A DNA stretch of 64,000 nt from Escherichia phage ECO103 4-12-1, in the sequence record OR844650, one strand, 5' to 3'. Both the position numbers and the translations under genes were made by a program. Positions 43,289 to 44,631 of this stretch are shown here, one piece after another. Numbering within the stretch: position 1 is the first letter of the stretch; each line of letters opens with the position of its first letter. A model generated the notes under the pieces. That model did not search any database. It saw nothing but the letters and a program-made list of their open reading frames with translations, and had not been told where the DNA came from.

Positions 43289-43819
43289 TTATTCAAGTAT
43301 AGTAATTTCAATTAAACGAATTTCGATAAACTCGTTTTCAGTTTCCCATGACGTGCCAAATTTCTTTTCAAGTTCAGATTTCACATCACTTTTAAATTTT
43401 CCCATAGTATTAGGAATAATTTGTTTGGTTAATTTGTCGTAACCACAATAAAACATAGGTTTCTCCCTTCGAGATATTAGCTGAACAAAATCTTTTGGAT
43501 ATGCAGGTATGTTATGCATCACTTCATGAATACACTCAGTACTTGAATCTTGTACTTTGTACATTACATTAAGTTTACCTCTGAAATTTGCGGTCATATC
43601 AACAATAGTTCCTTTACCCGATTTAAGTAAAGTTCCATTCTTTGAATGAGAGCAATAAAATACCTCATCACCAATATTAGGATAATACAAATTAAATTCT
43701 AATTCAGATTTTACAGCCAGCCGTTTGAAACTTTCTGTACGTTTTATATAAGTTTGGTATTTGTTTATGTTCAAAAGAATATCTCTCTTAGTAAATGTGA
43801 TATAACTGGCATAGTCCAT
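43289..43819 (-). CDS. hypothetical protein
   Basis: 176 aa ORF; N-terminus overlaps 3' end of methyltransferase gene by about 49 nt. Confidence 0.5.
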   Translation of the reverse strand: MDYASYITFTKRDILLNINKYQTYIKRTESFKRLAVKSELEFNLYYPNIGDEVFYCSHSKNGTLLKSGKGTIVDMTANFRGKLNVMYKVQDSSTECIHEVMHNIPAYPKDFVQLISRREKPMFYCGYDKLTKQIIPNTMGKFKSDVKSELEKKFGTSWETENEFIEIRLIEITILE

Positions 43820-44631
43820 CCATTCCCAAGCATTTTGTATGCTTGTGTCTTACTAGACACTTTAAAGAAATCTTCAGGAACACCCTGTAATTTACAACAT
43901 TCTACTACACTTAAGTGTCTATAGTCAATATTTCTTTTGCCATTCTCTAATAGATATTGACGACTGATCACTGGGTCACGAAACACCAATTGTCGTCTGG
44001 ATTTATTAAAGTACTGGTTACAATCACCACCTTTAAAATAGTTAGCATCTATACAGTACGAAGCGGTTCTGTCAGTGTACCAACCATCTTCAATAATATC
44101 TTGAAGTTTAGGTGCATTGGATAATGCAGGTGGTATAAAAAGCTTATCAGTACTGTACCAGTAATATCTCTGCCTGAAGTGAGGCGTATAATGCTGGGAG
44201 TTTATCAGTACTGGCGTGATTCCTAAAATACTATTAATGTATTCTTTGAAATCTTCCTTCATTTTAACATTTTCAAACAGAAATTTCAAGTTAGGATTGA
44301 GACTTTTGATATGATCAAAAATTTCAACCATTACTAAAAATAACTGCCCACGTATATCATTTAAACCACCCTGTTTACCTGCAACTGACCAGGCTTGGCA
44401 TGGGAAACCACCCATTAATAAATCTATTTTGTCCCACTCAATATCCCATTCTCTCCACTTAGTTACATCACCCAATTGGATAATATCAGGAAAGTTAGAT
44501 TGAGATTCAGCTATTGCGTACTTATCAATTTCGGATGAATAATATTTTTCAACTGGGATACCCGCATCTTGCAATGCCATATATCCCACACTCATTCCAT
44601 TAAAAAGAGAAAGTACTCGGATAGGTTTCAT
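43771..44631 (-). CDS. DNA (cytosine-5)-methyltransferase, Dcm-like
   Basis: motif I LFNGMSVG, catalytic GFPCQ, ENV, QRYYW/QxRxR-like, GNGW. Confidence 0.8.
   Translation of the reverse strand: MKPIRVLSLFNGMSVGYMALQDAGIPVEKYYSSEIDKYAIAESQSNFPDIIQLGDVTKWREWDIEWDKIDLLMGGFPCQAWSVAGKQGGLNDIRGQLFLVMVEIFDHIKSLNPNLKFLFENVKMKEDFKEYINSILGITPVLINSQHYTPHFRQRYYWYSTDKLFIPPALSNAPKLQDIIEDGWYTDRTASYCIDANYFKGGDCNQYFNKSRRQLVFRDPVISRQYLLENGKRNIDYRHLSVVECCKLQGVPEDFFKVSSKTQAYKMLGNGWTMPVISHLLREIFF

Follow-up and report, generated by a model that had tools for sequence, protein, structure and literature searches.

A stretch of 64,000 nucleotides from Escherichia phage ECO103 4-12-1 (sequence record OR844650), hereafter the window, carries on its minus strand a gene for a C5-cytosine DNA methyltransferase of 286 aa (43771..44631; ATG start, TGA stop at 43771-43773), followed by a small gene whose longest open reading frame (ORF) encodes 176 aa (43289..43819, minus strand). 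The 3' end of the methyltransferase gene and this longest downstream ORF share 49 nt (43771..43819, minus strand); the coordinates, the lengths and the overlap reported in the initial annotation, which was made from the sequence alone, were exact. On balance, we consider it probable that the methyltransferase is a functional orphan enzyme, that translation of the downstream gene starts at a TTG codon at position 43774, and that the 49-nt overlap is a by-product of a 5-nt deletion at the junction of the two genes.

The motif content and family matches of the 286-aa ORF are far beyond chance expectation, and it is not a chance ORF. Its product belongs to the Pfam family PF00145 (E=7.5e-38, 131.2 bits vs a cutoff of 22) and to TIGR00675 (119.2 bits vs a cutoff of 100.65), and it matches phrog_116 'DNA methyltransferase' at E=5e-60. 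All ten C5-methyltransferase motifs occur in the canonical order, with the target-recognition region located between motifs VIII and IX. In an alignment of 42 homologue sequences, residues F10, G12, E34, D55, P77, C78, E120-N121-V122, R153, R155, R238, E244 and G269-N270-G271 were invariant, so that the claim that all core motifs of these enzymes are present was borne out. Motif I reads F10-N-G12-M-S-V-G16 and motif IV P77-C78-Q79, both of which align to the corresponding motifs of DNMT3; motif VI is E120-N121-V122, motif VIII R153-Q-R155, motif IX R238..E244 and motif X G269-N270-G271. The AlphaFold model computed from the same 42-sequence alignment had a predicted local distance difference test score (pLDDT) of 93.9 and a predicted template modelling score (pTM) of 0.91. 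The protein had also been described as short. Its length was given correctly, but it is not unusual: the enzyme has over 8000 matching database clusters at E<1e-10, and most of the 120 nearest measure 268-340 aa.

Among solved structures, the closest relatives of the enzyme were the catalytic domains of the DNMT3 enzymes. The top 50 Protein Data Bank (PDB) matches found by Foldseek were all DNMT3A, DNMT3B or DNMT3C (template modelling score ~0.80, E down to 1.9e-24, ~27% identity), and the catalytic domains of DNMT3C, DNMT3B and DNMT3A were also the best phmmer matches (E ~1e-23), those of DNMT3B and DNMT3C extending over the full length (query residues 2-282). HaeIII and HhaI came next in sequence at 1e-18, and DNMT2 followed at 1e-9 to 1e-10. 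Both searches thus place the protein among DNMT3-type catalytic domains. The window enzyme and DNMT3 have in common the FxGxxxG of motif I, the RxRY[YF]W of motif VIII (RxRYYW in the window) and the W-x-x-PVI-x-HL of motif X (W-T-M-PVI-S-HL in the window), and the DNMT3 catalytic domain is of similar size, ~285 aa. They differ in motif IV, which is PCQ in the window enzyme and PCN in DNMT3, and the window enzyme has neither the PWWP and ADD regulatory domains nor a DNMT3L-type partner. Moreover, it is a viral orphan, whereas DNMT3 is a eukaryotic chromatin enzyme and a de novo CpG methyltransferase. Since the catalytic domain spans residues 2-285 of 286, there is no room for the chromatin-reading PWWP and ADD domains, and the protein therefore resembles the DNMT3 family but is not a member of it. 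The target-recognition segment aligns poorly to that of DNMT3, and the CpG specificity cannot be transferred for this reason. Judging from the sequence and the predicted model, the enzyme is a DNMT3-like minimal catalytic domain with a compact target-recognition region, its predicted architecture being closest to that of the DNMT3 catalytic domain.

The designation 'Dcm-like', which had been given to the enzyme in the initial annotation, turned out to be a misnomer. The profile of the Escherichia coli Dcm subfamily (NF007772 / PRK10458, target CCWGG) scored only 21.4 bits against a cutoff of 710 and matched residues 68-123 only, and the best matches in both sequence and structure were DNMT3. 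E. coli Dcm is a protein of 472 aa, of which the 286-aa window enzyme is not an orthologue. In E. coli, the 3' end of dcm overlaps vsr, the next small gene on the same strand. The arrangement in the window is alike in that the 3' end of a C5-methyltransferase gene overlaps the next small same-strand gene, but the downstream protein of the window carries no signature of Vsr or another nuclease. A 237-aa methyltransferase of phage K42 / KarlJaspers, also called 'Dcm-like', methylates CCWGG and triggers the retron Ec86 (bioRxiv 10.1101/2023.08.16.553469). Likened by description, it is a small orphan phage C5-methyltransferase too, and its predicted structure was superposed on DNMT3A by its authors (bioRxiv 10.1101/2023.08.16.553469); it differs in being shorter, in having Cys82 as the catalytic residue, and in being encoded by a 711-bp gene of a siphovirus. 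By analogy with this example, small phage enzymes of this kind can be a liability that is sensed by host defence.

The methyltransferase gene has been kept intact. Across lineages, the pairwise ratio of nonsynonymous to synonymous substitution rates (dN/dS) was 0.03-0.08 with dS values of up to 2, which demonstrates strong purifying selection. In addition, the catalytic Cys78 codon (44398..44400, minus strand; motif IV, GGFPCQAWS), invariant in the family, is an intein insertion site in relatives. The methyltransferases of phages UE-S1 (626 aa; locus L002, 3772-5652, minus strand) and A4 (632 aa; locus L004, 575-2473, plus strand) each contain an intein of ~340 aa exactly at the catalytic Cys. 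The junction reads GGFP/C-FPAGTMI...VVHN/C-QAWS, the inteins being of class 1 (Cys1 ... His-Asn / +1 Cys), and the domains Hint_2 and LAGLIDADG_3, the latter a homing-endonuclease domain, both score above the Pfam cutoffs in the two inteins. In phage TH47, too, the methyltransferase match breaks at this residue. No intein is present at Cys78 of the window allele, whose 286 aa are uninterrupted. In GenBank, the intein alleles of UE-S1 and A4 are annotated merely as long methyltransferases. Inteins typically occupy indispensable active-site motifs, and their position at the catalytic Cys is a further argument that the enzyme is of importance to the phage. We consider it extremely improbable that the gene is a decaying remnant encoding an inactive protein. 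The DNA of the related phage fEgEco12 is unprotected at the sites tested, as would be expected of a remnant; however, besides the purifying selection described above, all motifs are intact, the exteins of the intein-bearing alleles are intact as well, and the gene is conserved in jumbo phages of Escherichia, Klebsiella, Erwinia and Pectobacterium. From these features we infer that the enzyme is active.

The comparison of gene junctions pointed to a likely origin of the overlap. In phage Turkey5 and in the metagenomic contig L006, whose downstream protein is 71% identical to that of the window, the junction reads ...TTC TTT TAA T ATG AAC... and the two genes do not overlap. In A4, the ATG lies 14 nt after the stop codon, behind an AGAGG Shine-Dalgarno (SD) element. 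In the window as well as in G17, UE-S1 and Ecwhy_1 the junction is ...TTC TTT TGA AC..., that is, TTTT[AATAT]GAAC minus five bases. The 5-nt deletion from TTTT[AATAT]GAAC to TTTTGAAC destroyed the ancestral TAA-T-ATG arrangement, replacing the TAA stop by TGA and leaving, in place of the ancestral ATG, a TTG (codon 16 of the long ORF, 43772..43774, minus strand) that overlaps the stop codon as TTGA. By the same event, the downstream gene came to lie in the +2 frame of the last 16 codons of the methyltransferase gene, and in register with an accidentally open stretch that reaches back to the ATG opening the 176-aa ORF (43817..43819, minus strand), which is formed by the GGA-TGG codons (Gly271-Trp272) in motif X. 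Ribosomes that have finished the methyltransferase would then re-initiate at TTG 43774, and the overlap would be 4 nt. The product would be a protein of 161 aa (43289..43774, minus strand; phrog_28599).

The positions at which the orthologues begin point to the TTG. The distant downstream homologues are 157-166 aa long and all begin at approximately residue 16 of the 176-aa ORF of the window; likewise, tblastn aligned the 45%-identical orthologues from query residues 16-20 onwards. TTG16 aligns with the annotated start Met of the orthologue P0124 (an ATG in the sequence of L006); in Turkey5, A4 and other distant homologues, the start coincides with TTG16 or lies within two residues of it. Moreover, TTG16 is preceded by an SD-like AAGAGAG with a 7-nt spacing (-5.3 kcal/mol for the duplex with the 16S rRNA 3' end), and ATG 43819 by an SD-like GGGA located only 3 nt upstream (-4.2 kcal/mol); the SD energies of neighbouring ATG-start genes range from -3.9 to -8.7 kcal/mol. 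The other overlaps annotated in the region, according to the G17 record, are 1-14 nt long.

In public records the downstream gene is mostly given as 176 aa from 43819, in UE-S1 as 133 aa from 43690, and in relatives as 159-165 aa. We weighed the possibility that the overlap is real, the 176-aa form being produced from ATG 43819 by independent initiation and its 15-residue extension representing a recent functional gain of the clade, and we regard it as rather unlikely. ATG is the strongest start codon, the frame behind it is open, the ancestral ATG is gone from the window, and the ATG of motif X is found in every derived-clade phage examined (the window, G17, UE-S1, Ecwhy_1 and fEgEco12) and in clusters P0121-P0123. 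Nevertheless, this ATG is forced by the conserved Gly-Trp codons. In L006 the same ATG is not in frame with the downstream gene, and its reading frame meets a stop before the downstream start; in Turkey5 and A4 the Gly is encoded by GGT or GGC, and stops interrupt the +2 frame over the 3' end of the methyltransferase gene. Thus, selection for a long form can be read from neither the ATG nor the open frame. We estimate that in DNA with 33% GC a +2 frame would stay open over 15 codons by accident with a chance of roughly 0.3. None of the distant homologues has anything that corresponds to the extra residues 1-15, and between the window and UE-S1 there are 3 changes in the first 16 residues vs ~5 in the remaining 160. 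Ribosomes moving along a translated gene obstruct an initiation site within it, and this also counts against the 176-aa form, as does the 3-nt distance of its SD-like element.

Within the 49 nt, the window differs from UE-S1 and Ecwhy_1 by substitutions that leave the methyltransferase residue unchanged or replace it conservatively (H, R, E to D) and that are non-synonymous in the downstream frame (F9L, K11T and D13Y). The test for synonymous suppression in the overlap gave 1-3 substitutions observed vs 3-4 expected, too few to be informative. On the strength of the sequence comparison, the long overlap probably resulted from the junction deletion and is not functional. Of the two explanations that had been offered for the overlap, the alternative start is thus favoured by the comparative data; a functional role of the 49 nt is not. 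Translational coupling would, in our reading, operate through the TTGA junction instead.

A start located further in, with no overlap at all, appears improbable. It could be the ATA at codon 18 (43766-43768), which is an ATG in the Ecwhy_1/fEgEco12 clade, or the TTG at codon 44 (43690, 133 aa), whose equivalent is used in the UE-S1 record. However, ATA is a very poor initiator, and TTG44 lacks an SD element (+0.2 kcal/mol) and would drop ~28 residues that are aligned across orthologues, including the invariant K37. A programmed frameshift fusion of the two genes at TTC-TTT-TGA was also considered, on the basis of the sequence, and rejected: a +1 shift would enter a frame that soon closes, a -1 shift needs CTT re-pairing, and the orthologues with TAA-T-ATG cannot perform it.

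The two genes look like a self-contained unit. A sigma-70-like promoter match (TTGGAA-18 nt-TATAAT with an extended -10 TG; 44669..44698, minus strand; 10/12 consensus matches) is located 38 nt upstream of the methyltransferase ATG, and an SD-like AAGGA (44638..44642, minus strand; -5.4 kcal/mol with the 16S rRNA 3' end) lies in between. The promoter is only a candidate, as such matches were no more frequent in the region than in shuffled sequences. At the other end, a scan detected a GC-rich hairpin, AAATCCACGC-AAT-GCGTGGATTT, followed by a minus-strand T-run (43262..43284, no strand assigned), which is a candidate intrinsic terminator; a terminator is annotated at the equivalent position in the GenBank records of G17 and UE-S1. 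The methyltransferase and the downstream gene thus appear to be co-transcribed as a two-gene unit from the candidate promoter at 44698-44669 to the hairpin at 43262-43284. The intergenic region upstream of the methyltransferase gene also contains, at 44650-44685, a near-perfect AT-rich palindrome, CTATAATATATTATAG, with TATAAT on both strands and located next to GTAC. Judging from its sequence, it could be a bidirectional promoter or an operator element.

The downstream gene, with a dN/dS of 0.12-0.28, belongs to a very small family. It was found in 35 phage records, all of Escherichia or Salmonella Asteriusvirus-like phages, and the methyltransferase gene adjoins it in every locus opened and wherever the records annotate both. 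Its family comprised 4 clusters among 5.8 billion sequences and 11 representatives in a profile search of 1.84 billion, which placed the start but gave no clue to the function. Searches of the downstream protein against Pfam, NCBIfam, PADLOC and PHROGs yielded nothing informative (phrog_28599 is of unassigned function, and Cadherin_5 was a sub-threshold match at E=0.022). Its AlphaFold model, built on a 5-sequence alignment, was poor (pLDDT 48.6), and with this poor model Foldseek found nothing in the PDB at E<0.07, only generic small beta-barrels. A Vsr, another nuclease and a TET enzyme were rejected as identities of the protein, and the weak family and fold matches were set aside as uninformative.

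It is tempting to regard the methyltransferase and the 161-aa protein as a counter-defence cassette specific to Asteriusvirus phages infecting E. coli and Salmonella, with the small protein as a functional partner, yet we find this idea quite doubtful. The partner could, for example, be a modulator of specificity that binds DNA or 5-methylcytosine (5mC), or it could shield 5mC-containing phage DNA from type IV (McrBC/McrA-like) restriction. The idea stems from the adjacency of the pair in every locus inspected, from its position between a candidate promoter and a terminator where it interrupts an array of paralogues, and from the rarity of the protein family (only ~11 representatives among 1.8 billion, no recognisable fold). 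The interrupted array consists of at least 8 paralogous small ORFs of 125-180 aa on the minus strand (window positions 41459-43273 and 45289-47370), which share the C-terminal motif [ST]EE.[FL]FQ.S[TL][IV].D.G and have no Pfam or PADLOC match. The 161-aa gene is missing from RaK2 and from Erwinia phage Hallingskeid. Their methyltransferase orthologues (66% and 78% identity, respectively) are flanked by other small hypothetical ORFs, and RaK2 gp194 is likewise followed by a small ORF, an unrelated one.

To describe the neighbourhood, we took ten flanking ORFs, five per side, counted from the ORF after the 176-aa gene. None of the ten, nor the downstream ORF itself, had a Pfam match above the cutoff or a PADLOC match, and no restriction endonuclease, Vsr, TET/JBP or glycosyltransferase family was found among these eleven ORFs. 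The claim that no restriction endonuclease or Vsr partner is evident was thus confirmed, and the designation 'orphan' holds. The locus does not qualify as a type II restriction-modification system, there being no endonuclease match in the ten flanking ORFs, with the reservation that the silence of profiles is not proof of absence. Nor does it form a Dcm-Vsr pair, the 176-aa ORF having no Vsr or nuclease match in Pfam, NCBIfam or PADLOC, or a phage cluster of C5-methyltransferase and TET (5mYOX), given the absence of TET/JBP and glycosyltransferase families from the flanks. M.SssI (CpG), M.CviPI (GpC) and the phage GpC C5-methyltransferases coupled to TET are likewise orphan C5 enzymes, encoded by viruses or mollicutes, whose methylation of short motifs protects or marks DNA (PMC8256090); the window enzyme differs from the TET-coupled ones in having no TET or glycosyltransferase neighbours.

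These observations also bear on the question of whether the enzyme might serve something other than DNA protection, either as a Dnmt2-like tRNA m5C methyltransferase or as the first enzyme of a 5mC-to-5hmC hypermodification pathway of the methyltransferase-TET type. The gene is named 'DNMT2' in the Turkey5 record, Rak2-like phages carry tRNA genes, and phage clusters of C5-methyltransferase and TET exist (PMC8256090). We nevertheless find both roles very improbable. Membership in Dnmt2/TRDMT1 was rejected, as the DNMT2/tRNA-methyltransferase chains match the N-terminal ~124-157 residues, at most the first 157, with E=4e-10 or worse, in comparison to ~1e-23 for DNMT3. Hypermodification is disfavoured by the ten flanking ORFs, in which no TET/JBP, glycosyltransferase or other modification family was detected, and TET/JBP are absent from jumbo phages according to Iyer et al. 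(PMC7824862).

Protection from restriction is the most plausible role of the enzyme. C5-methyltransferases flip out the target base, attack C6 with the catalytic Cys, transfer the methyl group from S-adenosylmethionine (SAM), and release the product by beta-elimination. The predicted enzyme would accordingly flip out its target cytosine, Cys78 would attack C6, and the methyl group of SAM would be transferred. In this way, replicating or newly made phage DNA would be methylated at a short motif, and the most likely benefit would be the blunting of host restriction.

The literature on such protection is mixed. RaK2 DNA was reported to be cut only by methylation-insensitive enzymes, and bisulfite sequencing was reported to reveal 5mC in the CpG context, in both cases as data not shown (PMC3622015). 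Phage fEgEco12 carries an intact methyltransferase gene that is 95% identical to that of the window. CpG methylation prevents cleavage by SmaI, ClaI and NruI, and Dcm methylation prevents cleavage by SexAI. The DNA of fEgEco12 gave the predicted patterns with these four enzymes, with PshAI and with five others (PMC13070987). This normal cleavage makes general CpG or CCWGG methylation of virion DNA unlikely in Asteriusvirus. The papers on the BASEL collection, Sharanji and UE-S1 give no methyltransferase specificity. In the window, the observed/expected ratio was 0.74 for CpG and 1.25 for TpG/CpA; a CpG deficit together with a TpG/CpA excess is compatible with deamination of 5mCpG but is not specific to it.

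Several observations weigh against the interpretation of the locus as a functional orphan methyltransferase gene followed by a TTG-initiated gene. As a start codon, TTG is weaker than ATG, and it is ATG 43819 that is used in most GenBank records; in the sister clade (Ecwhy_1 and fEgEco12) codon 18 is an ATG, so that the clades may differ in the start they use. The promoter match does not exceed what shuffled sequences yield. Given the normal digests of fEgEco12, either general CpG and CCWGG are excluded as the target or virion DNA is poorly methylated, and there is no direct methylation evidence for any Asteriusvirus. We still prefer the TTG start and a functional enzyme, in view of the orthologue starts, the junction deletion and the purifying selection.

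The source phage is an Asteriusvirus, i.e., a Rak2-like jumbo coliphage (jumbo myoviruses of ~350 kb). The 4-kb segment around the methyltransferase gene is 99.8% identical to Escherichia phage JP4 and 95-98% identical to IA-38, SHEFM2K, phAPEC6, SP27, PBECO4, 121Q, G17, Sharanji and others. As an annotated gene, the methyltransferase is already known from dozens of GenBank records and from the whole genus: cluster P0001 of NCBI proteins is 100% identical to the window protein, and a 95-100% identical protein occurs in 28 phage records. The annotated Asteriusvirus gene (PBECO4, 121Q gp91, phAPEC6, G17_00216, JP4, and 'HaeIIIM' in Sharanji) is the same gene as that of the window, and the enzyme shows no difference. 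The names given to it include 'DNA methyltransferase', 'putative modification methylase', 'haeIIIM', 'DNA methyltransferase Dcm', 'DNMT2' and 'Modification methylase HpaII'. Those referring to HaeIII, Dcm, DNMT2 and HpaII are inconsistent with each other, and none is based on a determined specificity. The papers on Sharanji, UE-S1 and RaK2 (PMC3622015) treat the gene as a putative protective methyltransferase whose specificity was not determined, and Iyer et al. list DCMs among the modification enzymes of jumbo phages (PMC7824862).

The window protein is 78% identical to the methyltransferase of Hallingskeid and 64-66% identical to RaK2 gp194, in which the target-recognition core is largely kept (YTDR..SYCIDANY.K.G...QY..KSRRQ). 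More distant relatives are encoded by phi92-like phages and related coliphages of ~146-150 kb (~51% identity), by ICP1 (~45%), and by many Vibrio, Bacteroides and Cellulophaga phages. In the genomes of 185,579 species the best relatives did not exceed ~53% identity. Those in bacterial genomes adjoin ORFs that resemble, by eye, integrases, single-stranded DNA-binding proteins (SSB) and phage Dam-like genes, a setting that resembles a prophage; no nuclease was evident by eye, and there is accordingly no restriction-modification partner that could lend a specificity to the enzyme.

Orphan C5 methyltransferases are common in phages, and the gene as found matters little by itself. The practical gains are the corrected start of the downstream gene, the demonstration that the specificity names in public records are baseless, and a conserved small enzyme that would be easy to characterise. 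Such characterisation would settle the apparent conflict between 5mCpG in RaK2 and the digests of fEgEco12. The inteins at the catalytic cysteine and two features of base composition seen across Rak2-like phages, a selected excess of AGTACT and the total absence of GCGC, may be more interesting than the main finding.

The palindrome AGTACT (the ScaI site) occurs 163 times in the window vs ~22 expected from base composition, a ~7-fold excess. Inside ORFs there are 142 sites, in comparison to 38.0 ± 5.7 in synonymous-codon shuffles, and the sites are distributed evenly and over all three codon phases. In its extended form, CAGTACTG, the palindrome is present 35 times vs ~0.6 expected. A similar density of 2-4 per kb was observed in RaK2, Hallingskeid, Turkey5 and A4. 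The methyltransferase orthologues have exactly 4 AGTACT sites each, at partly different positions, which suggests selection for density. In phi92, however, no AGTACT was present in 50 kb (17 expected), and as this phage encodes a methyltransferase homologue of 51% identity, the excess is not tied to the enzyme family and AGTACT was rejected as the methylation target. We found neither an explanation nor literature for the AGTACT excess.

GCGC is absent from the window, although 50 sites would be expected by composition and 24.3 ± 4.0 were obtained in synonymous shuffles, and it is likewise absent from all ten related loci (L001-L010). Inside ORFs, CCGG (8 vs 23.5 in synonymous shuffles) and GATC (98 vs 171) are strongly depleted, and CTGCAG and GGATCC are missing window-wide. 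Judged from site counts, the depletion of GCGC, CCGG and GATC looks like restriction-site avoidance, and the avoidance of these sites implies that the phage methyltransferase probably does not protect them. Among CpG-containing sequences, the depletion was strongest for CCGG, GCGC, GCGA/TCGC and TCGA, whereas ACGT and ACGA/TCGT were not depleted.

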